Shown here in pieces: positions 26,374-53,101 of a stretch of DNA of 64,000 bases. Every line of letters begins with the position of its first letter. Position 1 is the stretch's first letter. The position numbers and the translations under genes were made by a program. The notes beneath the pieces were generated by a model. It was not told the origin of the DNA. It did not search any database and saw only the letters and a program-made list of their open reading frames with translations. Source of the stretch: an uncultured Gammaproteobacteria bacterium (lineage in GTDB: Bacteria > Pseudomonadota > Gammaproteobacteria > DRLM01); contig CAVSNY010000007.1 of assembly GCA_963729605.1 (NCBI GenBank), positions 1,342,518 through 1,406,517 on the forward strand. The letters run 5' to 3'.

Positions 26374-28290
26374 ATGAAGAAAATCGACATCCACAGCCCC
26401 GAGGCCCAGTCCGCCGATCTGGTGGCGGGCAACATCGACCAGCTCAAGGCCCTGTTCCCGGACCTCATTACTGAAGGCCCGAACGGCACGGCGGTGAACG
26501 TGGATGTGCTCAAGGCCCTGGTGGGTGACCAGACCGTCACCGATGCCGACGAGAAATACGGCCTCAACTGGCACGGCAAGCGCCGCGCGCGGCAATTGGC
26601 GCTGACACCGAGTACCGGCACTCTGCGGCCCTGCCCGGGCGAGAGCGTTGATTGGGAAACCACCCAGAACCTGATGATCGAGGGCGACAACCTCGAAGTC
26701 CTCAAGCTGTTGCAGAAAAGCTATGCCGGCGAGGTCAAGCTCATCTATATCGATCCGCCGTACAACACCGGCAAGGACTTTGTGTACCCGGACAACTTCC
26801 AGGACAACATCAAGAACTATCTGGAACTGACCGGGCAGGTGGAGGGCGGACAGAAGATCAGCAGCAATACCGAAGCCAGCGGTCGGTTTCATACGGACTG
26901 GTTGAACATGATGTATCCAAGGTTGAAGCTAGCGAGGAATCTTCTTCGGGATGACGGGGTTATCTTTGTTAGTATTGACGACAATGAAGTAACGAACTTG
27001 CGCAGTGTGCTTGATGATTTATTCGGGCCGGAAAACTTTGTTGCCAATGTCATCTGGCAGAAGAAATACAGCACGAAAGCAGATTCTAAGGATTTTTCGG
27101 AATCACATGACTTCTTGGTGTGCTATCGAAAAGGCGGCACTGCCCAGATTCAAGGTTTGCCCCGAAGTGATGCTCAAGAGGCCACATATAAAAACCCAGA
27201 CAATGATCCTCGCGGTCCCTGGGCATCTGACAATCTATTGCGTACTGAGGTTAGAGAGTACGCAATCTTCGGTGTTATGGCACCGAATGGACAAGAACAC
27301 TGGCCACCTGAGGGAAGTAGTTGGCGCTTTAACAAGGAGAGAATGGCAGAACTCATTACTGACAATCGCATCTGGTTTGGCGAAGCGGGAAATAGCAAAC
27401 CCCGGCTGAAGCGATTTCGCTCTGAAGTCCGAGATTCGATTCCACCACAGACAATTTGGACATTCGATCAAGTAGGCCATACTGACGAGGGCACTAAACA
27501 GCTGGCAGAGTTGTTTGGCAGTACGCGTTCTCCGTTTCCTAATCCGAAACCAACTCGGCTGCTTCAGCGTGTCGTTCAAATAGGTTCAAACAATAGTGAT
27601 ATTGTTTTGGACTTTTTTGCTGGTAGTGGAACGACCGGACAGGCTGTATGGGCGCAAAACGTTGCCGATGGTGCAAGCCGGCGTTTCCTAGCGGTACAGC
27701 TACCGGAGCCGTTGAGCGATGGAAATAAAGAAGATCAGTCGGTCATTCACTATTGTGACCAACTTGGCAAACCCCGCACCATTGCCGAACTTACCAAAGA
27801 ACGTCTACGCCGCGCCGCCGCCAAGGTCAAGGCCGACAATCCGCTGTTTGCCGGCGACACCGGCTTCCGCGTCTTCAAGCTCGACCACTCCAATATCCGC
27901 GCCTGGAATCCCAACCCGGCGGATCTGGAAGCTTCGCTGTTCGACCACCAGGATCATTTGCTCGCAGGCCGCTCTGAGGCTGACGTGCTCTACGAGCTGT
28001 TGCTCAAGCTCGGCCTTGACCTGTGCGTGCTCATCGAGCAGCGCACCGTCGCGGGCAGTGACGTGCATGCCGTGGGTGGCGGCGTGCTGATGGCCTGCCT
28101 AGCCGAGCAGATTACCCGCGAGCAGGTGGAGCCGCTGGCCCAAGGTATTATCGACTGGCACCAGGAACTGGCGCCCGCCGGTGACACCACTTGCGTGTTC
28201 CGCGATAGCGCCTTCGCTGACGACGTCGCCAAGACCAACCTCGCCGCCACTCTGGAGCAACACGGCATCCAGAACGTGAGAAGCTTGTAG
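26374..28290 (+). CDS. mod: Type III restriction-modification Mod (N6A methyltransferase)
   Basis: IEGDNLEVLK, YIDPPYNTG, PKP, LDFFAGSGTTGQA. Confidence 0.93.
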   Translation: MKKIDIHSPEAQSADLVAGNIDQLKALFPDLITEGPNGTAVNVDVLKALVGDQTVTDADEKYGLNWHGKRRARQLALTPSTGTLRPCPGESVDWETTQNLMIEGDNLEVLKLLQKSYAGEVKLIYIDPPYNTGKDFVYPDNFQDNIKNYLELTGQVEGGQKISSNTEASGRFHTDWLNMMYPRLKLARNLLRDDGVIFVSIDDNEVTNLRSVLDDLFGPENFVANVIWQKKYSTKADSKDFSESHDFLVCYRKGGTAQIQGLPRSDAQEATYKNPDNDPRGPWASDNLLRTEVREYAIFGVMAPNGQEHWPPEGSSWRFNKERMAELITDNRIWFGEAGNSKPRLKRFRSEVRDSIPPQTIWTFDQVGHTDEGTKQLAELFGSTRSPFPNPKPTRLLQRVVQIGSNNSDIVLDFFAGSGTTGQAVWAQNVADGASRRFLAVQLPEPLSDGNKEDQSVIHYCDQLGKPRTIAELTKERLRRAAAKVKADNPLFAGDTGFRVFKLDHSNIRAWNPNPADLEASLFDHQDHLLAGRSEADVLYELLLKLGLDLCVLIEQRTVAGSDVHAVGGGVLMACLAEQITREQVEPLAQGIIDWHQELAPAGDTTCVFRDSAFADDVAKTNLAATLEQHGIQNVRSL

Positions 28291-30130: not shown

Positions 30131-33100
30131 ATGAAACTGCATTTTGAACCCAACCTCGACTATCAGTTGCAGGCCATCGAAGCGGTCTGCGACCTATTCC
30201 GTGGCCAGGAGGTTTGCCGCACCGAGTTCACGGTGACGATGAAGGCGCCGACGCCGCCGGGTACGGACCTGTTTCCCGGTACACAGCCTGAGCAAATGAC
30301 GCTGGGCATGGCCGAGTCCGATTTAGGGGTCGGCAACCGTCTGACCCTGCTGGATGATGAGCTGCACAAGAATCTGGCGGAGATCCAGCTGCGCGGCGGC
30401 CTTCCGCCCTCCGGCGCGCTGGCGTCTGGCGATTTCACCGTGGAGATGGAAACCGGGACGGGCAAGACCTACGTCTACCTGCGCACAATCTTTGAGCTGA
30501 ACAAGCGCTATGGCTTCAGTAAGTTCGTGATTGTGGTGCCTTCCGTGGCGATCAAGGAGGGCGTCTACAAGACCCTGCAGATCACCGAGGATCACTTCAA
30601 GGGGCTCTACGCGGGAGTTCCTTTCGACTACTTCCTGTACGACTCCAACAAGCTCGGGCAGGTGCGCAACTTTGCCACCAGCTCGAACATCCAGATCATG
30701 GTGGTGACGGTCGGCGCCATCAACAAGAAGGACGTGAACAACCTCTATAAGGACAGCGAGAAGACCGGCGGAGAAAAGCCTATTGATCTGATCAAGGCGA
30801 CCCGGCCCATCGTCATCGTGGACGAACCCCAGAGTGTGGATGGTGGCCTCGAGGGGCGCGGCAAAGAGGCTCTGGATGCGATGAATCCACTCTGCACGCT
30901 GCGCTATTCCGCGACCCACGTAAACAAGCATCACATGGTGTTTCGCCTCGACGCAGTCGATGCCTACGAGCGCAAGCTGGTGAAGCAGATCGAGGTGGCC
31001 TCGGCTATGGTGGAGGATGCGCACAACAAGCCTTTTGTGCGCTTTGTGGCCCCGATTACGCGAGGAAAAAGTGTAGTAGGTGCAAGGGTCGAGCTTGATG
31101 TGCTTGAAAGTGGGAAAGTAAAACGCACTATCAAAGAGGTGCAGCCCTACGATTTACTGGAGCAACTGACCAAGCGGGACATCTATAAGGATTACATGAT
31201 CGGTGTCGAGATCATCGCCAAAAAAGGTGAAGAGCTGATGGAGCTACGTTACCCCGGTGGTGAAGTTTTCTTGAAGCCGGGTCAAGCCCACGGTGATGTG
31301 GATGCGCTGGCCGTGCAGCGTGAAATGATCCGTCGCACGATTCGCGAACATCTGGACAAGGAAAAGCGCCTGCGACCGTTGGGCATCAAGGTTCTGTCGC
31401 TATTTTTCATCGATGCGGTGGACAGGTACCGCCAGTACGATGCGGACGGCAATCCGGTCAAAGGTGACTACGCGCGCATCTTTGAAGAGGAGTATCGGCG
31501 TGCCGCCAAGCTGCCGGCCTACCAGAGCCTCTTCGCCGAGATCGACCTGGACTCCGCCGCAGTGGAAGTGCACAACGGCTATTTTTCCATCGACAAGAAG
31601 GGGGGGTGGACAGACACCGCCGAGAACAATGCGGGTAACCGCGAGAATGCCGAGCGCGCCTACAACCTGATCATGAAGGAGAAGGAAAAGCTACTGTCCT
31701 TCGACACGTCGCTCAAGTTCATCTTCTCCCACTCGGCCCTCAAGGAGGGCTGGGACAACCCGAATGTGTTCCAGATATGCACCCTGCGAGACATCCAGAC
31801 CGAGCGCGAGCGTCGTCAGACCATCGGCCGCGGATTGCGTTTGTGCGTGAATCAGCACGGTGAGCGGGTACGGGGCTTCGAGGTCAACACCCTGACCGTA
31901 GTGGCTACGGAGAACTACGAGCAATTCGCCGAAAACCTGCAGAAAGAGATCGAGGCGGATACCGGCATACGTTTTGGCATTGTCGAGCATCACCAGTTTG
32001 CCGCAATTGCCGTGACGGCTCCGGACGGAAAGACCGTGCCCTTGGGCGTCGAGCAATCCAAGGCGTTGTGGGAGCATCTGAAGGCCGCCGGCCACATTGA
32101 CGCCAAGGGCAAGGTGCAGGATTCGCTGAAAAAAGCGCTCAAGGAAGGCACCCTGGTGCTGCCTGCCGAGTTTGATGCCCAGAAGGGCCAGATTGCCGAG
32201 GTGCTGCGCAAGGTATCGGGCCGCCTGGAAATCAAGAATGCCGATGAGCGCAAACAGGTTCCTCTGCGCAAAGGCGAGGATGGCAAGGCGATATACCTGA
32301 GTGACGAGTTCAAGGCGCTGTGGGATCGCATCAAACATCAAACCACCTATCGCGTTCAATTTGACAACCCCAAGCTGATCTCTGATTGCATCAGCGCCTT
32401 GCAAAAGGCACCTGCGATTGCCAAAGCGCGCCTGCAATGGCGAAAGGCCGATATCGCCATTGGCAAGGCGGGCGTTCAAGCGACCGAGAAAGCGGGTGCA
32501 GCGACGGTGGTGCTGGATGAAACGGATATTGAGCTGCCGGACTTGCTGACGGACCTGCAGGATCGAACCCATCTAACCCGCCGCACCATCACCAGTATCC
32601 TGACCGGAAGTGGTCGCCTGGACGACTTCAAGCGTAACCCGCAGCAGTTCATCGAGCTGGCCGCCGAGACCATCAACCGCTGCAAACGGATGGCCCTGGT
32701 CGACGGCATTAAGTACCAGAAGTTGGGCGACCAGCACGTCTACGCGCAGGAGCTGTTCGAGAAGGAAGAACTCACCGGCTATCTCAAGAACATGCTGATG
32801 GACACCCACAAATCGATCTACGAGCACGTGGTGTACGACTCGACCACGGAGCGAGATTTTGCGGATGCGCTGGAGAAGAATGATGCAATCAATCTGTATG
32901 CCAAGCTGCCAAGTTGGTTCAAGGTTCCAACCCCACTAGGTAGCTACAACCCCGACTGGGCCGTGCTGGTGGAGGAAGACGGCACGCAGCGTCTTTACTT
33001 CGTGGTGGAAACCAAGAGCAGTCTGTTTACCGATGACCTGCGGGACAAGGAGAGCGCCAAGATCGAATGCGGCAAAGCGCATTTCCACGCATTGGCGGTT

Positions 33101-33172
33101 GGTGAGAATCCGGCACGTTACGTAGTCGCGCGTTCAGTTGGCGACCTGTTGACGGAAGCGGTCAAGGGATAA
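30131..33172 (+). CDS. res: Type III restriction enzyme Res subunit
   Basis: VEMETGTGKT, IVDEPQ, EGWDNPNVFQ, QTIGRGLR, nuclease motif YNPDW...VETK. Confidence 0.93.
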   Translation: MKLHFEPNLDYQLQAIEAVCDLFRGQEVCRTEFTVTMKAPTPPGTDLFPGTQPEQMTLGMAESDLGVGNRLTLLDDELHKNLAEIQLRGGLPPSGALASGDFTVEMETGTGKTYVYLRTIFELNKRYGFSKFVIVVPSVAIKEGVYKTLQITEDHFKGLYAGVPFDYFLYDSNKLGQVRNFATSSNIQIMVVTVGAINKKDVNNLYKDSEKTGGEKPIDLIKATRPIVIVDEPQSVDGGLEGRGKEALDAMNPLCTLRYSATHVNKHHMVFRLDAVDAYERKLVKQIEVASAMVEDAHNKPFVRFVAPITRGKSVVGARVELDVLESGKVKRTIKEVQPYDLLEQLTKRDIYKDYMIGVEIIAKKGEELMELRYPGGEVFLKPGQAHGDVDALAVQREMIRRTIREHLDKEKRLRPLGIKVLSLFFIDAVDRYRQYDADGNPVKGDYARIFEEEYRRAAKLPAYQSLFAEIDLDSAAVEVHNGYFSIDKKGGWTDTAENNAGNRENAERAYNLIMKEKEKLLSFDTSLKFIFSHSALKEGWDNPNVFQICTLRDIQTERERRQTIGRGLRLCVNQHGERVRGFEVNTLTVVATENYEQFAENLQKEIEADTGIRFGIVEHHQFAAIAVTAPDGKTVPLGVEQSKALWEHLKAAGHIDAKGKVQDSLKKALKEGTLVLPAEFDAQKGQIAEVLRKVSGRLEIKNADERKQVPLRKGEDGKAIYLSDEFKALWDRIKHQTTYRVQFDNPKLISDCISALQKAPAIAKARLQWRKADIAIGKAGVQATEKAGAATVVLDETDIELPDLLTDLQDRTHLTRRTITSILTGSGRLDDFKRNPQQFIELAAETINRCKRMALVDGIKYQKLGDQHVYAQELFEKEELTGYLKNMLMDTHKSIYEHVVYDSTTERDFADALEKNDAINLYAKLPSWFKVPTPLGSYNPDWAVLVEEDGTQRLYFVVETKSSLFTDDLRDKESAKIECGKAHFHALAVGENPARYVVARSVGDLLTEAVKG

Positions 33173-33186
33173 GCGGGAGGAAGAGC

Positions 33187-34134
33187 ATGGCGTTAAATTT
33201 AAGACAGGCAGTGGTCGGCTTCCTCAAGGATCGTGCGGAGCAGAAGTTCACTGCGCGGCAGATTGCGGAGTGGCTATTCGAAACATTCCCCGAGGAGTGT
33301 CATGAAAAACGGGCCAACAGCCGGGGCGACTACATCAAGTCCGATGCTGATCTGGTGCAGCAGCTTGTCGCGGAAATCAGCTCGCAGCGCCCGCGCTTGC
33401 AGAAGAAGCATCCAGAGCTCAAGACGACCGAGGGCCGCCCACGGAAGTACTACTACTCCGAAAAGTCAGACGGTGCCGAGGTGGCGGCGGCAGAGAGCGC
33501 AGTCGTCGTGCCTACGGCCGACATGAACGATACCAAGCTCGGCGAGCGCGCGATGTACCCTCTGCTGTCGCTGTATCTGTGGGAAGAGTTTGGGGTGTAC
33601 TCGAAACGCATCGACGAGAAGCGTTCATCGAACAAGCGCGGCCCGAACGGCAACCGCTGGCTCTACCCGGATCTGGTCGGCATGGAGGACCTAGGCGCGG
33701 ACTGGCACCAAGAGGTGCGGGACTGCGTGAATCAGTACTCCGACAAACGCACCAAGCTGTGGTCGTTCGAGGCCAAGCTGTTGATCAACCGGTCGAACGT
33801 GCGTGAATGCTTTTTTCAGGCGGTTTCCAACTCGTCGTGGGCAAGCTTCGGCTACCTGGTCGCAGCGGAGATCGAGGGCCAGGACACGCTCAAGGAATTG
33901 CGGATGCTGTTCGCTGCGCACGGCATCGGCCTGATCAAACTGGATGCTGACAACCCGGCAGAAAGTCAGGTCTTGATTCCGGCCCGTGAAAGAGATGAGA
34001 TCGATTGGGACATGGCCAACCGGCTGGCAACCGAGAACCGGGATTTTCTCGACTACGTTAAGTTGGTGAAGCAGTTCTACCAGACCGGCGAAGCACGGCT
34101 GGCCGAGTGGGATGTGCCGAAAGAGACCGAGTAG
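33187..34134 (+). CDS. HrgA-like HTH + PD-(D/E)xK nuclease protein
   Basis: NRWLYPDLVG...WSFEAK, FFQAVSNSSWA.FGYLVA. Confidence 0.8.
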   Translation: MALNLRQAVVGFLKDRAEQKFTARQIAEWLFETFPEECHEKRANSRGDYIKSDADLVQQLVAEISSQRPRLQKKHPELKTTEGRPRKYYYSEKSDGAEVAAAESAVVVPTADMNDTKLGERAMYPLLSLYLWEEFGVYSKRIDEKRSSNKRGPNGNRWLYPDLVGMEDLGADWHQEVRDCVNQYSDKRTKLWSFEAKLLINRSNVRECFFQAVSNSSWASFGYLVAAEIEGQDTLKELRMLFAAHGIGLIKLDADNPAESQVLIPARERDEIDWDMANRLATENRDFLDYVKLVKQFYQTGEARLAEWDVPKETE

Positions 34135-34387
34135 CGCCAGGCTATTCGAGGAAAGCGATCACTGTGAGTTGCTGTTCGCTCTGCTGAACTGGCCTTGCCA
34201 GACGTTCCGGTCGCCAATGCGCAGACGCTGTAGCGTCAACTGAAAGCCCTCACAGTTGCGCTCTTTCGCCGTCGCAAAGTCGCCCGTGTCGAATCTGGCC
34301 TCACGAGCCAGTTTGGTCGCGATGGACTTCATGGCGTGCTCGAACAGATCGAGCAGATTGGATTGTTCGTCCTCGTCGATGCCAAAC

Positions 34388-34901
34388 GTTAGCCTTACAC
34401 CCATTCCGACACTCACACCCGGAGGACCGAACGATGACGAAGTACCTTATCTCCTTCCCCGCATCGGCGATGGACAGCTCCGACGAAAACCTGGCTGCCG
34501 TCGGCGAAGCGGCACGCGCGGTCATACGGGAGGCGAAGGATGCCGGCGTCTATGTGTTCGGCGGTGGTATCAACGGGGACGTCGCGCCTCTGATGGTCGC
34601 CGCCGACGGCACTGTTACGAACGAGACCTACCCGCAGACCAAGGAGTTCGACGGCGGCTTCTGTGTCCTGGAACTCCCGTCGCGCGAAGCCGCCGTCCAA
34701 TGGGCCGCGAAGATCGCCAAAGCCTGCCGCTGCTCACAGGAACTCCGCGAGTTCGGTTACGACCCCGAGAGCTGACAGGCGAGGTCGCAGCCGATGCGAA
34801 CGAGGAGGTCTTTCTGCATCTACATACTTCATTGCCATGAACTTCGGACAGGTAACACGCCCCAGCGCCTCGGCACATCCTGTACCGGTCGGGAGCCTAA
34901 C
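34388..34901 (+). mobile_element. Integron gene cassette (YciI), copy 1, attC interior missing
   Basis: Starts GTTAGCC and ends GCCTAAC; near-identical to the cassette at 38569-39144. Confidence 0.7.
34434..34775 (+). CDS. YciI/DGPF-family protein, copy 1
   Basis: GGAGG RBS; AGVYVFGGG, YPQTKEFDGGFCVLELPSREAA..WA. Confidence 0.8.
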   Translation: MTKYLISFPASAMDSSDENLAAVGEAARAVIREAKDAGVYVFGGGINGDVAPLMVAADGTVTNETYPQTKEFDGGFCVLELPSREAAVQWAAKIAKACRCSQELREFGYDPES

Positions 34902-35042
34902 ACTGAACACAAGAATGGAGCAAAGGTGCTATTGGACTGGAAGATGAAATCGCGACTACTACAACTCATTCATGCAGAGGCCTCTGCCGGCGTTGTGGGA
35001 TGAACAGCGGGCGAGGATTGCTGGCTCAACGCCAGCGTGAGG

Positions 35043-36047
35043 TCACTGATTGATTGTCGTTTCCAGCGCGCGCAGGCGATCGACGATGGCATCGAAGGCG
35101 GGAGGCTCGTCGATGAACATACCGGCACCGATCATGCGCTGGAAGTCATCGCGCAGCGTGGCCAGTGCGGCATCTTCCGGAATGAGTCTGAGCTGCCCGG
35201 CCAAGCATGCGTCGTAGTTGGCGTAGCTCGCGTTGTAGAAGACCTTCTTGTGCTTGACGACATCGGCGAGCAAAGCGCGATCGGCCACAGCGGCTTGCCC
35301 ATGGGCAAGATCGGCCAGCATGGCCAGATCGTACCAGTGGCGTGACAGGCGTTCGGCGCCTGTGCGGAACTCGTCGCGCTGACACTCGACGTGCATCAGC
35401 GTCGCCTTTTCCCAGAAGGTACGTGCCGGGGACAGCACACTGACCGTCGACCGAGGAAAATCGAGTGCAGCGACATGCTCCGCGATATCGGGCCGTACCT
35501 CATGCTCTTCGTTCGGCTCGGTGATGTTTCGGCCGCCAAACTCGATCAGGACGCTGCTGCCAACGTAGTTCCCCGGCGATTCCAGAGCCGTCGCGTAGTG
35601 CACCCGCAACTTCTCGCCATCATCGCTAACTTCAAGCTGGAATGCGTTGGTATCAAACTCGGCGGCCAGCGTCCTTTGGAAGTGCGGTAACACGACACCG
35701 TGGGCATGCTCGCGCACGAACGACTTGAGATCCTCGCTGAATTTCTTCAGCCGATTGCGCGAGACGCCTTCGGCAAACGGATCGAAGGAACCGTCCAAGC
35801 CACGATAGTCGAGCGTGATGTCCACGTCCTCGGAGAAGCGAGCAATGGCGCCGAACACCTTGGAGAGTGATGTGCCGCCCTTGAAGGCCATTGGCAGTCG
35901 GTCGGGCATGGTGAACAGGGTCTGCAGCACCCAGCAGACCCAGACATCCTTTTCCAGTACGACGGGCGAGCGCGCAAGCTGCGGAGCCAGTGCCCGATAG
36001 ATTTGGGACTGCTCTTGAGCTTTCAGGTGCAGGAAGGACTCAGGCAT
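35043..36047 (-). CDS. AbiEii-family nucleotidyltransferase toxin (type IV TA)
   Basis: EKDVW, FKGGTSLSK, RFSEDVD, RTFWEK, SRHWYD. Confidence 0.9.
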   Translation of the reverse strand: MPESFLHLKAQEQSQIYRALAPQLARSPVVLEKDVWVCWVLQTLFTMPDRLPMAFKGGTSLSKVFGAIARFSEDVDITLDYRGLDGSFDPFAEGVSRNRLKKFSEDLKSFVREHAHGVVLPHFQRTLAAEFDTNAFQLEVSDDGEKLRVHYATALESPGNYVGSSVLIEFGGRNITEPNEEHEVRPDIAEHVAALDFPRSTVSVLSPARTFWEKATLMHVECQRDEFRTGAERLSRHWYDLAMLADLAHGQAAVADRALLADVVKHKKVFYNASYANYDACLAGQLRLIPEDAALATLRDDFQRMIGAGMFIDEPPAFDAIVDRLRALETTINQ

Positions 36048-36660
36048 GAACGGCAGTCCGCTCGCTCCGGAAGATGGCGTCGCTCATCCACGCGGGCATT
36101 GAGCTGGTGGCTGATTTCAGCACCTCGAATTCGCTCGATCCCAGCTTGCGCCGAATCTTCTCGACGAGAGCCGGCGTTACTTCCGTCTTGCCGAGGTACC
36201 ACATCGCCGCAAGCGCGAGTCCGGCGGGTCGACCCGCCAGGGCCAACTTGCGTTGGCAGACGTGTTGCAGACGGATCTCCATCTTGCCCACGCGGATGCG
36301 CTTCGACGGGCCGGATGTCACGAATACAGGCTGGGTCGGGACCTGCGTGGTCAGTTCGAGCCGACGCGCCGCTTCGGCACCGTGAACCTGGACGACGGCA
36401 CCCGTGATCTTGGCGATGGTCTCGGCCACCTTAAGCGGCTCGGGCATCACCTTGCCGACGAAACGGCTGACCTCTGGACGCACAAAGATGCCGCGCGTCA
36501 CGCGCTCGATCGACCCTGCTTTGACGAGGCGGGAGAGGGTCTGATCGACGGACGCACGCGTGCCGGACTCCAGGAATGCCGTCGGGGTGAAAGGCTCCCC
36601 GATCGGCATCGCCTCGATGCGCTGGCGAATCAGCTCGGCAGTCTTGGTCGTCGTGTTCAT
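36040..36660 (-). CDS. DUF6088/AbiEi-like antitoxin
   Basis: wHTH VDQTLSRLVKAG.IERVTRGIF; LELTTQVP; overlaps the toxin start. Confidence 0.85.
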   Translation of the reverse strand: MNTTTKTAELIRQRIEAMPIGEPFTPTAFLESGTRASVDQTLSRLVKAGSIERVTRGIFVRPEVSRFVGKVMPEPLKVAETIAKITGAVVQVHGAEAARRLELTTQVPTQPVFVTSGPSKRIRVGKMEIRLQHVCQRKLALAGRPAGLALAAMWYLGKTEVTPALVEKIRRKLGSSEFEVLKSATSSMPAWMSDAIFRSERTAVHA

Positions 36661-36972
36661 GTATGAAAATATATGCGAGTTTCTGACAAACTGCAAGTGC
36701 GATGACTCGCGGGGGAGATGGCTCGTGTTCCCTCCGGTAGCCAATGCGGTAATCCAACCGTTTGATTGGTCAGAGCGTAACTATTTGATCTGTATTGGGA
36801 TGACTTGTGGCCTTTGCGGACTTCGGCCAGTTTCAGGGAGCGAGGTCAGAGCGAGGAATGGCCAGGAGAGAGTGGAATGTGGCCCGGAACCTGTCGTGCG
36901 GCCGACGGCCGAAGTCCGCAGGCTTCCGCTGGAACCCCCGCGAACACGCGGGAACCGGCGCGAGCAGGCAAG

Positions 36973-37000
36973 AAAAAGCCCCAACTGATAACAGTTGGGG
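36973..37000 (-). terminator. Rho-independent terminator near the probable island end
   Basis: CCCCAACTG-ATAA-CAGTTGGGG hairpin with a T-tract on the minus strand. Confidence 0.6.
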
Positions 37001-37183
37001 TCTTCAATGTGGCGGCGTCTACCTAATAGACAACATAAATATTGAAATTATTTAAAAGTTGTTTTCAAAAATTAACGAGTTGCCCCCATCACTTGTTTGT
37101 AGAAGTTTTTCCTAACCTCAATGTGCTTGCACCATAACCCCTGACCCCCAACGTTGCGGTAATGGACCCAGACCATGTCATTG

Positions 37184-38501
37184 TGAACCGCCCCGTGTTT
37201 TGCGGAGGCTGTTTGGTTTAAGTCATGCTGCAATCGCGGCATGACGGCGGTATTGCCTGTAGTAGTTTGCCTCAGCTTCTGCTGGAGGGATATACCCCAG
37301 AGGCTCTAATAGCCGGTGGTGGTTAAACCACGAGACCCATTCCAGGGTCGCCAGCTCCACGGATTCCCGGGTTTTCCAGGGTCCCCGACGATGGATCAGC
37401 TCGGCCTTGTACAGCCCGTTGATCGTCTCGGCCAATGCGTTATCGTAGCTGTCGCCCTTGCTGCCGACCGAAGGCTCGATGCCGGCCTCGGCCAGTCGCT
37501 CGGTGTAGCGGATCGAGACGTATTGCGAGCCCCTGTCGCTGTGATGGATCAGGGCATCCTCTGGTTCGGGCTGCCGGGCGTACAGAGCTTGCTCCAGTGC
37601 GTCGAGCACGAAGTCCGTGGCCATGGTGCGGCTGACCCGCCAACCGACGATGCGCCGGGCGAAGACATCAATGACGAAGGCCACATACAGCCAGCCCTGC
37701 CAGGTCGACACATACGTGAAATCCGACACCCAGAGCTGGTTGGGCCTGTCCGCCTTGAACTGTCGATTGACCCGGTCCAGCGGGCGTGGCGCCGAGTGGT
37801 CAGGCACGGTGGTGCGAACCGCCTTGCCACGGCGCACACCCTGCAGGCCCAGGCGCTTCATCAGACGCTCGACCGTACAACGGGCCACCTCGATGCCCTC
37901 GCGGTTCAGCTGCCGCCAGACTTTGTCGGCGCCGTACACCTGCAGGTGGGTGTGCCAGACACGCTGAATATGCGACATCAATACCTCATCGCGCTTGGCC
38001 CGGGCGCTGCGCAGATCCGGATCGCGCCGCCGGGCCGCATGGCGCCGGTAGGCCGATGGGGCAACCTGCAACACCTTGCAGATCGGCTCGACCCCATAAG
38101 CATCCCGGTGCTGGTCGATGTAGGTATTTACGACTTCAGTTTGCGGTCGAGCTCCGCCTGTGCGAAAAAAGCGCTGGCGGTACGCAGTATCTCATTGGCG
38201 CGCCGCAACTCCTTGTTCTCGCGCTCCAGCTCCTTGATGCGCTGTGTCTCGGACGTGGTCGTGCCAGGACGCGCTCCGGCATCGGCCTCCGTACGCTTAA
38301 CCCACTCCAGCAGCGTCCCGGGTACACAGCCAATCTTCGGGGCGATCGACTCCACGGCCATCCACAACGACGGGTATTCCCCGCGATGCTCCTGCACCAT
38401 TCGAACCGCACGTTCACGGACTTCAGGTGAAAACTTGTTCGACTTTTTCATGGCTCCATTCTCTCAAATGTTGGAGCCTCCTCAAAACCAGGGGCGGTTC
38501 A
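37184..38501 (-). mobile_element. IS3-family element (IS51-group-like), copy 1, 1318 bp
   Basis: Terminal IRs TGAACCGCCCC/GGGGCGGTTCA; 3-bp TSD TTG; orfA plus orfB. Confidence 0.95.
37223..38451 (-). CDS. IS3 transposase OrfA (38128-38451) and OrfB (DDE), programmed -1 frameshift
   Basis: [27 protein letters not shown]; TTTTTTC slippery site at 38164-38170. Confidence 0.93.
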
Positions 38502-38553: not shown

Positions 38554-38577
38554 AGGCCTAACTCAAACGTTAGGCCT
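38554..38577 (+). other. Collapsed (internally deleted) attC site
   Basis: AGGCCTAAC-TCAAAC-GTTAGGCCT: R'' fused directly to the spacer and R'. Confidence 0.65.
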
Positions 38578-38614
38578 TACACCCATTCCGACCTCACACC
38601 CGGAGGACCGAACG

Positions 38615-38956
38615 ATGACGAAGTACCTTATCTCCTTTCCCGCATCGGCGATGGACAGCTCCGACGAAAACCTGGCTGCCGTCGGCGAAGCGGCACGCGT
38701 GGTCATACGCAAGGCGAAGGATGCCGGCGTCTATGTGTTCGGCGGTGGTATCAACGAGGACGTCGCGCCTCTGATGGTCGCCGCCGACGGCACTGTTACG
38801 AACGAGACCTATCCGCAGACCAAGGAGTTCAACGGCGGCTTCTGTGTACTGGAACTCCCGTCGCGCGAAGCCGCCGTCCAATGGGCCGCGAAGATCGCCA
38901 AAGCCTGCCGCTGCTCACAGGAACTCCGCGAGTTCGGTTACGACCCCGAGAGCTGA
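38615..38956 (+). CDS. YciI/DGPF-family protein, copy 2 (cassette gene)
   Basis: Differs from copy 1 at only a few residues. Confidence 0.8.
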   Translation: MTKYLISFPASAMDSSDENLAAVGEAARVVIRKAKDAGVYVFGGGINEDVAPLMVAADGTVTNETYPQTKEFNGGFCVLELPSREAAVQWAAKIAKACRCSQELREFGYDPES

Positions 38957-39066
38957 CCGGCGAGGTCGCAGCCGATGTGAACGAGGAAGTCCTTCTGCAT
39001 CTACATACTTCATAGCCATGAACTTCGGACAGGTAACACGCCCCAGTGCCTCGCTACATCCGGGAG

Positions 39067-39144
39067 GCCTAACCCTTCGTTGCACCCGACTCGCTACAGC
39101 GGGATTCGCCCGCTTCCGCGAGCAGGTGAACTCAAACGTTATGC
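39067..39144 (+). other. Integron attC site (78 bp)
   Basis: R'' GCCTAAC, L'' GTTGCACC (extrahelical G), central hairpin, L' GGTGAAC, R' GTTATGC. Confidence 0.85.
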
Positions 39145-40914: not shown

Positions 40915-41053
40915 TCCCCCGAATCCCTCCTTAGAGAGGACGGGGGAAAAAATCCCCTCCTTTTTTAAAGGAGGGGTGGACGCGAAGAGGACGGGGGAAA
41001 AAATCCCCTCCTTTTTTTGAAGGAGGGGTGGACGCGAAGCGGACGGGGTGGTT
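40915..41053. repeat. Tandem 51-52 bp REP-like repeat (2 full units plus partials)
   Basis: Unit GAGGACGGGGGAAAAAATCCCCTCCTTTTTTAAAGGAGGGGTGGACGCGAA at 40936 and 40987. Confidence 0.8.
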
Positions 41054-41087
41054 GATGACGAACCGCTTCGCTTATGACGAAGCATCA

Positions 41088-51783: not shown

Positions 51784-53101
51784 TGAACCGCCCCGTGTTT
51801 TGCGGAGGCTGTTTGGTTTAAGTCATGCTGCAATCGCAGCATGACGGCGGTATTGCCTGTAGTAGTTTGCCTCAGCTTCTGCTGGAGGGATATACCCCAG
51901 AGGCTCTAATAGCCGGTGGTGGTTAAACCACGAGACCCATTCCAGGGTCGCCAGCTCCACGGATTCCCGGGTTTTCCAGGGTCCCCGACGATGGATCAGC
52001 TCGGCCTTGTACAGCCCGTTGATCGTCTCGGCCAATGCGTTATCGTAGCTGTCGCCCTTGCTGCCGACCGAAGGCTCGATGCCGGCCTCGGCCAGTCGCT
52101 CGGTGTAGCGGATCGAGACGTATTGCGAGCCCCTGTCGCTGTGATGGATCAGGGCATCCTCTGGTTCGGGCTGCCGGGCGTACAGAGCTTGCTCCAGTGC
52201 GTCGAGCACGAAGTCCGTGGCCATGGTGCGGCTGACCCGCCAACCGACGATGCGCCGGGCGAAGACATCAATGACGAAGGCCACATACAGCCAGCCCTGC
52301 CAGGTCGACACATACGTGAAATCCGACACCCAGAGCTGGTTGGGCCTGTCCGCCTTGAACTGTCGATTGACCCGGTCCAGCGGGCGTGGCGCCGAGTGGT
52401 CAGGCACGGTGGTGCGAACCGCCTTGCCACGGCGCACACCCTGCAGGCCCAGGCGCTTCATCAGACGCTCGACCGTACAACGGGCCACCTCGATGCCCTC
52501 GCGGTTCAGCTGCCGCCAGACTTTGTCGGCGCCGTACACCTGCAGGTGGGTGTGCCAGACACGCTGAATATGCGACATCAATACCTCATCGCGCTTGGCC
52601 CGGGCGCTGCGCAGATCCGGATCGCGCCGCCGGGCCGCATGGCGCCGGTAGGCCGATGGGGCAACCTGCAACACCTTGCAGATCGGCTCGACCCCATAAG
52701 CATCCCGGTGCTGGTCGATGTAGGTATTTACGACTTCAGTTTGCGGTCGAGCTCCGCCTGTGCGAAAAAAGCGCTGGCGGTACGCAGTATCTCATTGGCG
52801 CGCCGCAACTCCTTGTTCTCGCGCTCCAGCTCCTTGATGCGCTGTGTCTCGGACGTGGTCGTGCCAGGACGCGCTCCGGCATCGGCCTCCGTACGCTTAA
52901 CCCACTCCAGCAGCGTCCCGGGTACACAGCCAATCTTCGGGGCGATCGACTCCACGGCCATCCACAACGACGGGTATTCCCCGCGATGCTCCTGCACCAT
53001 TCGAACCGCACGTTCACGGACTTCAGGTGAAAACTTGTTCGACTTTTTCATGGCTCCATTCTCTCAAATGTTGGAGCCTCCTCAAAACCAGGGGCGGTTC
53101 A
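51784..53101 (-). mobile_element. IS3-family element, copy 2, no TSD
   Basis: Same length and ORFs as copy 1 (one difference seen at 51838); flanks CGC and ATA. Confidence 0.95.
51823..53051 (-). CDS. IS3 transposase OrfA/OrfB, copy 2
   Basis: Protein sequences identical to copy 1 in the ORF track. Confidence 0.93.

Follow-up and report, generated by a model that had tools for sequence, protein, structure and literature searches.

Within a stretch of 64,000 nt from an uncultured gammaproteobacterium (here called the window), a 513-bp segment that we term copy A is probably a stranded, attC-less relic of an integron cassette of the YciI family, lying in a decaying cassette cluster within a defense island and not inserted into the gene that it adjoins. 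The identity of the cassette, the loss of its attC recombination site, the truncation of the neighboring gene, the lack of an intact integron integrase gene (intI), and the support for both junctions are direct observations. A first-pass annotation of the same DNA had already recognized positions 34389-34901 as an integron cassette, which is borne out by the 5' core, the compact ORF, the mobile relatives, and a sister copy that retains an attC; it had also read the letters of both junctions correctly (gccaaacG-TTAGCC at 34382-34394 and GCCTAAC-actgaac at 34895-34908), pointed to a near-identical cassette with a full attC 4.2 kb away (copy B), and placed copy A beside a broken non-integron gene. 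The mechanism that it proposed, in which the integrase IntI put a circular cassette into an uninterrupted ORF at G/TTAAC (the slash marks the crossover point) and the attC was later deleted by slippage between TAAC copies, did not survive comparison with homologous loci.

RESULTS

Integron cassettes begin at a core site with the consensus G/TTRRRY, and the R' (GTTAG.C) and R'' (G.CTAAC) boxes are reverse complements by design. The 5' core of copy A (GTTAGCC) is one purine position off this consensus and that of copy B is GTTAGGC, so that the 5' boundary of a cassette is present (Table 1). A single ORF occupies copy A, with GGAGGA 7 nt 5' of the ATG, and a consensus scan of 34100-35100 found no sigma-70-like promoter; copy A thus has the compact, promoterless ORF of integron cassettes. 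The encoded proteins of both copies exceed the PF03795 gathering cutoff of 24 (31.0 bits for copy A and 29.6 bits for copy B). At the 3' end, where a cassette should carry R'' and R' boxes around an imperfect hairpin, copy B has this structure and copy A does not: the similarity between the two copies ends right after the R'' box GCCTAAC, and no hairpin follows copy A on either strand (folding z scores of +1.2 and +1.1). A candidate residual 3' attC half to the right of copy A, in which TGAAC.CAA resembles the L' end of the copy B attC, was rejected as not significant, since 583 of 2,000 shuffles gave a local match as good. With only R'' left of its attC, copy A is a relic and no longer a functional cassette, and because the site is cut directly after R'', excision by any integron integrase is impossible.

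Table 1. Positions and descriptions of the features in and around the cassette relic (window coordinates)
Feature	Coordinates	Strand	Description
HrgA-like / COG2958-type gene, 315 aa	33187..34134	+	Last gene of the type III R-M block (mod 26374-28290, res 30131-33172)
Remnant of a conserved 96-aa gene, 3' part from codon 17 onward	34159..34383	-	First 16 codons and promoter missing
AAACG	34384..34388	+	Read as the tail of the preceding attC (spacer plus G of R'), not gene sequence, from its match to other attC ends
Cassette relic, copy A	34389..34901	+	513 bp; 5' core TTAGCC, RBS, YciI ORF, conserved 3' untranslated part, R'' GCCTAAC end
YciI-family ORF of copy A	34434..34775	+	Intact, 113 aa; PF03795
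R'' box of copy A, GCCTAAC	34895-34901	+	Remainder of attC absent
Orphan spacer, 147 bp	34902..35048		No match found
AbiEii (35043-36047) and AbiEi (36040-36744)	35043..36744	-	Toxin-antitoxin / abortive-infection pair; Pfam, PADLOC
IS3-family insertion sequence, 1,318 bp	37184..38501	-	3-bp TTG target duplication; rve and HTH domains
Collapsed attC stub	38556..38569	+	R'' GCCTAAC, TCAAAC, and G of R'; inner 54 hairpin nt missing relative to attC 39067-39144
Complete cassette, copy B	38570..39138	+	YciI ORF 38615-38956 and attC 39067-39144 (whose final 6 nt are part of the following unit)

Copy B lies to the right of copy A and is 96.4 to 96.5% identical to it over 489 to 499 nt; the two ORFs differ by 4 synonymous and 4 nonsynonymous codons, and both are intact. 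The attC of copy B, 78 nt long, folds as a hairpin on the bottom strand (-24.1 kcal/mol, z score of -4.4, with 0 of 200 shuffles as good), and the collapsed stub that precedes copy B folds as a 9-bp hairpin (z score of -4.3). Three states of attC decay are therefore found within 5 kb, namely, a full site (39067-39144), a collapsed R''-TCAAAC-R' site (38556-38575), and a site reduced to R'' (34895-34901). A third variant of the cassette is present in Logan contigs of X1 and X4, with 18 to 32 differences over approximately 465 to 485 nt (aligned to 34396-34880), and is preceded by ...AAGGCATAACTCAAACGTTAGCC, an attC stub before a GTTAGCC core like that of copy A.

To the left, copy A abuts the remainder of a gene whose homology to intact loci ends at codon 17. 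The minus-strand piece at 34162-34389 recovered 79 proteins at an E value of ≤0.01, including the window's own and thus 78 others, which are typically 96 aa long with 61 to 90% identity. Their N termini are of the type MTNRYKKAVIED..SH, followed by GIDEDE; MTNR is found in 56 of the 78 and close variants (MSSRF, MTKRY, MSNRY, etc.) in about 12 more, the rest being fragments or differing. The DNA of one such locus, L010, aligns to the window with 90.2% identity over 4,271 nt (res, the HrgA-like gene, and the 96-aa gene), and at base level this alignment stops at 34383, 5 nt before G/TT. The missing 5' 48 nt of the gene are absent from the whole genome: blastn searches with the upstream DNA of L010, L011, and L013 and a tblastn search with the N-terminal peptide recovered chance matches only. 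Upstream of the intact gene, the DNA is conserved with L010 in 16 of 18 other genome loci, and the genes in this part of L010 encode a tail protein (PHROGs, 1.2e-164), a tail-fiber-like protein, and an endolysin (3.1e-44), which marks the late end of a prophage. No counterpart of this phage region was found in the genome under study, where all 8 tblastx matches scored below 39 bits. Because prophage tail and endolysin genes lie upstream in relatives and none lie here, the 96-aa gene is, judged from these alignments, truncated by a large loss or replacement and not split by 508 bp. A search of the Atlas with the 96-aa protein gave no usable match.

Where the 96-aa gene is intact, as at L010 (3010-6291) and in 16 other loci, it directly follows the phage tail, tail-fiber, and endolysin genes and stands tail-to-tail with the HrgA-like/type III R-M block, which in other bacteria may be carried at the end of a prophage.

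At the left junction, the homology to the gene stops short of the cassette. Exactly three sites in the window match AAACGTTAKSC, and (T)CAAACG also precedes G/TT at 38563-38569 (before copy B) and at 39132-39138 (the end of the copy B attC). Since the same letters stand before G/TT at these sites and in the third variant, we assign AAACG to the end of an attC that stood before the cassette, and the best reading of the junction is that the 5' boundary of copy A would be intact and that the break lies 5 to 6 nt further left. A competing origin for these letters is suggested by L010, where the intact gene itself reads AAACG 5 nt past the point at which homology stops (...GATGCC GTGAG AAACG/GTG on the strand corresponding to the plus strand of the window). 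The cassette could then have been joined by a crossover between attC and a secondary (attG-type) site, or by imprecise excision, at G/GT near codon 14, with 5 nt and the remainder of the gene being lost afterward; the available portions of a preprint on such events (10.1101/2022.09.11.507474) report excision that uses genomic sites close by and alters the chromosome. We consider this route unlikely: it requires the extra 5-nt deletion, the valine codon that provides AAACG occurs in L010 alone of five aligned loci, CAAACG stands before G/TT at two other window sites and in the X1/X4 variant, where it is attC derived, and the genome has no intact intI.

The argument for an insertion into an intact gene had rested on what appears when 34390-34897 (508 bp) is removed. 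As computed, this deletion does create GTTAAC and a 100-codon stop-free minus-strand frame beginning with M, but it does not restore an interrupted gene, as the proposed N terminus is found in 0 of 78 homologues. Neither CSVL nor FLCS occurs in any of these 78, nor does the join of CSVL to TFGIDE on which the first-pass annotation had staked its model. The 24-residue N-terminal piece matches homologue N termini no better than shuffled sequences do (200 of 500 reach its score), and random 24-codon frames from this genome are free of stops in 12,122 of 20,000 cases (61%), so that the openness of the rejoined frame is not beyond chance. This 24-codon frame (34898-34969, minus strand) lies mostly within the orphan spacer, with its last codon inside copy A; the spacer matches nothing in the genome, in 19 genome loci, or in 80 metagenome loci, and contains nothing belonging to the 96-aa gene.

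The apparent target site has an equally simple origin, as all bases of GTTAAC come from the cassette: G and T from the 5' core (R') and TAAC from R''. Because R' and R'' are complementary, the G and T of a left core plus the TAAC of R'' must yield GTTAAC. Excising any cassette that ends at R'' will therefore appear to restore this palindrome, and at a genomic G+C content of 61% a short frame spanning the join should be expected to be open, which is a caution for similar analyses. IntI is known from the older literature to use secondary sites of the classical GWT type. Here, with the homology ending at 34383 and the right flank unrelated, a simple insertion at a GTTAAC site did not take place, and slippage would have had no target copy of TAAC to act on. 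Thus, the idea that the cassette was locked in by loss of its attC holds as far as the loss is concerned, given the absence of a hairpin or remnant, and fails as to TAAC slippage. Genuine junction letters, an open frame of 100 codons, and integrase-mediated insertion outside att sites, which the available portions of the preprint document (10.1101/2022.09.11.507474), speak for insertion at G/TTAAC followed by slippage; the missing N-terminal match, the frequency of open frames, the 5-nt gap between gene homology and G/TT, a right flank unrelated to the gene or to its upstream DNA, and the cassette origin of GTTAAC together render it highly improbable.

Logan contigs assembled independently from one public run, X1, span each of the two junctions and extend more than 31 nt to either side. 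The left junction lies within record 1 (4,622 nt), which shows 0 differences over 33600-34425, and the right junction within record 6 (429 nt), which shows 1 difference over 34836-35264, and so the read-level check that the first-pass annotation had proposed for both junctions came out in their favor. X1 contains 73% of sampled words and may be the genome's own sample, so this support is not fully independent, but it does rule out a misjoin by the genome's assembler. Two near-identical copies 4.2 kb apart in a genome of 7 contigs and 94.5% completeness, possibly a metagenome bin, do invite the thought of a chimera produced by misjoining 96%-identical repeats. Such an artifact is scarcely credible given the separately built bridging contigs and the position of both breakpoints in unique sequence beside the repeat and not within it. 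Runs X2, X4, and X5 cover the stretch partially, at 90 to 99% likeness.

The genome-wide search for an integrase, also suggested in the first-pass annotation, recovered no intact intI in the 94.5%-complete genome; six matches to TIGR02249 were found, the best at 76 bits against a cutoff of 265. One of the six is a fragment of approximately 250 bp at C7:412215-412467 (approximately 1484-1760 of locus L005), on the same contig as the window and about 965 kb from it. Its N-terminal IntI-like reading contains a TAA in frame, has a gap inside, and is truncated; integron integrase models are its sole NCBIfam matches. A past or plasmid-borne integrase is possible. We also scanned the genome for attC sites by pattern and folding, a noisy method that gives less than IntegronFinder would, and besides the copy B site it returned one convincing site at C7:1062808-1062913. 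This attC-like hairpin of 106 nt (GCCTAAC...GTTAGGC), with a folding energy of -30 kcal/mol as DNA, lies about 2.6 kb from one of the other IS copies and is possibly another stranded cassette.

Genes of defense and mobility surround copy A. To its left are DUF4391, AbiD, type III mod, an AlbA_2/HATPase_c_4 gene, res, and the HrgA-like gene, the last two with 90% DNA identity to L010. The HrgA-like gene has no match in Pfam, NCBIfam, or PADLOC, and the nearest Atlas clusters of its product are automatically named "HrgA protein" or "COG2958 family protein" (score of 0.99). To the right, the AbiE pair was identified by PF08843 (1.5e-40) and DUF6088/AbiEi_4, with PADLOC assigning AbiEii (3.8e-100) and AbiEi (3.1e-64). 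The homology of this module to genome G252 (90%) begins only at 35049 and ends at the abiEii stop. An inverted cassette was considered for the AbiE segment and rejected, there being no hairpin in 34888-34978 on either strand and the G252 homology ending at that stop codon. The IS3-family element is present in 7 genome copies and contains an ALIL frameshift pseudoknot at 38057-38173 (109 bits). Between 22000 and 41999, almost no DNA match was found in five same-genus or same-family genomes, except for the IS and part of the R-M block, which identifies this region as a variable island.

Several other elements of this region are recorded here in their own right. Direct copies of the IS3-family element at 37184-38501 and 51784-53101 bracket approximately 13 kb that includes copy B. 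Upstream of abiEi lies a conserved noncoding stretch of about 270 nt (36736-37006), with a terminator-like hairpin near 36975-37010 and no match to Rfam, tRNA, or tmRNA models; its DNA is matched at two places in L012 and next to the AbiE genes of G252 (L115). At 40925-41054, a tandem repeat of approximately 58 nt has a palindromic core (GGGGGAAAAAATCCCCTCC...GGAGGGG), and short elements like it are repeated at six places in the same-genus genome G002.

The YciI protein has 5,400 relatives at an E value of ≤1e-5, and many at about 88% identity come from records named Nitrospira, Ramlibacter, Planctomycetaceae, and a cyanobacterium, a spread that fits a horizontally traveling gene. Among 80 metagenome loci encoding the protein, we inspected the flanks of 39, where the conserved DNA typically starts at G/TTAGGCC and the upstream DNA is unrelated, often being the end of another attC. 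Four loci (L036, L038, L041, and L061) carry an attC nearly identical to that of copy B, with different DNA after each, and further loci carry the YciI gene with another type of attC or with none. In these same four loci, the roughly 115 nt from the YciI stop to the attC (34776-34894 and 38957-39066 in the window) are strongly conserved, which is unusual for the untranslated tail of a cassette. A rough motif count over the 65 metagenome loci with two flanks, whose patterns overlook some true sites, found both core and attC in 9, a core alone in 12, an attC alone in 6, and neither in 38, suggesting that attC-less copies of the YciI gene are common. Copy B DNA had a match in 0 of 11 same-family genomes, and both the cassette and the 96-aa gene are absent from the same-genus and same-family genomes searched.

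DISCUSSION

In this study, we characterized a locus that is an ordinary and well-supported case of cassette decay, and the mechanism put forward in the first-pass annotation is refuted. Because no close relative has the region, the order of events, like the deletion mechanism, is something that we infer. Copies A and B would descend from one small cluster of sister YciI cassettes that lost its integrase long ago and has been eroding since, through deletions or illegitimate joins that end at attC hairpins and delete them partly or wholly. Other mobile DNA, namely, the AbiE pair and the IS3-family element, may have entered the cluster as well. One such deletion or illegitimate join would have brought codon 17 of the 96-aa gene up against the attC tail that precedes copy A, presumably where a former prophage and R-M block ended, and this erosion would have locked copy A in place. 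An ancestral cassette array was not found among the genome and metagenome loci compared.

One observation runs against decay by random deletion, which does not explain the exact fit of the copy A ends to the loop of the collapsed stub. Copy A is exactly one unit between two stub loops, as it starts with (T)CAAACG and ends with GCCTAAC, and this coincidence keeps alive a small chance that the stubs act as breakage points. A collapsed attC (an 8- to 9-bp R''/R' hairpin with the loop TCAAAC) would then be a reusable point of breakage or recombination and not only a scar, and copy A would have been released as a unit by cuts in two hairpin loops, or by an integrase cleaving the top strand at R'', and then joined into a break where the degraded prophage ends. 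We regard this as quite unlikely; if true, it would provide a relocation route for cassettes that have no canonical attC.

Comparison with described systems helps to place the stranded relic. Isolated cassettes (SALINs), their insertion at attG sites, and their imprecise excision are described in the available portions of the preprint (10.1101/2022.09.11.507474), and clusters of attC sites without an integrase (CALINs) in those of two articles (PMC4889954 and PMC9024848). Both terms denote attC sites with no integron integrase nearby, a CALIN requiring at least 2 attC, and the one full attC in the window satisfies the definition of a SALIN and not that of a CALIN. The definition of a SALIN in the available text of the preprint (10.1101/2022.09.11.507474) applies to copy B, which has one full attC and is cassette DNA far from an integrase. 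Copy A differs from both categories in having no attC at all, and the cluster shows graded attC decay instead of intact sites. The locus also resembles the attC-by-attG insertions of the same preprint (10.1101/2022.09.11.507474), as far as its available portions describe them, in that a cassette lies outside an integron beside a disrupted chromosomal gene. Here, however, taking out the cassette does not yield a continuous target, the join is displaced from G/TT by 5 nt, and the 3' junction lacks an attC. Thus, none of the marks of secondary-site insertion, which are a continuous target, a crossover at G/TT with a whole attC, and an available integrase, was found.

The loss of attC has a familiar parallel. 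In class 1 integrons, cassettes become fixed by loss or fusion of attC, and loss of the site makes the cassette permanent. The relic described here shares this passage from attC loss to permanent residence, but it has no integron platform or Pc promoter, and its cargo is a YciI-family gene and not a resistance gene. As copy A carries no attC, finders that depend on this site would miss such relics. With one cassette family in three attC states within 5 kb and an integrase reduced to a fragment, this locus offers a tidy natural example of cassettes turning permanent.
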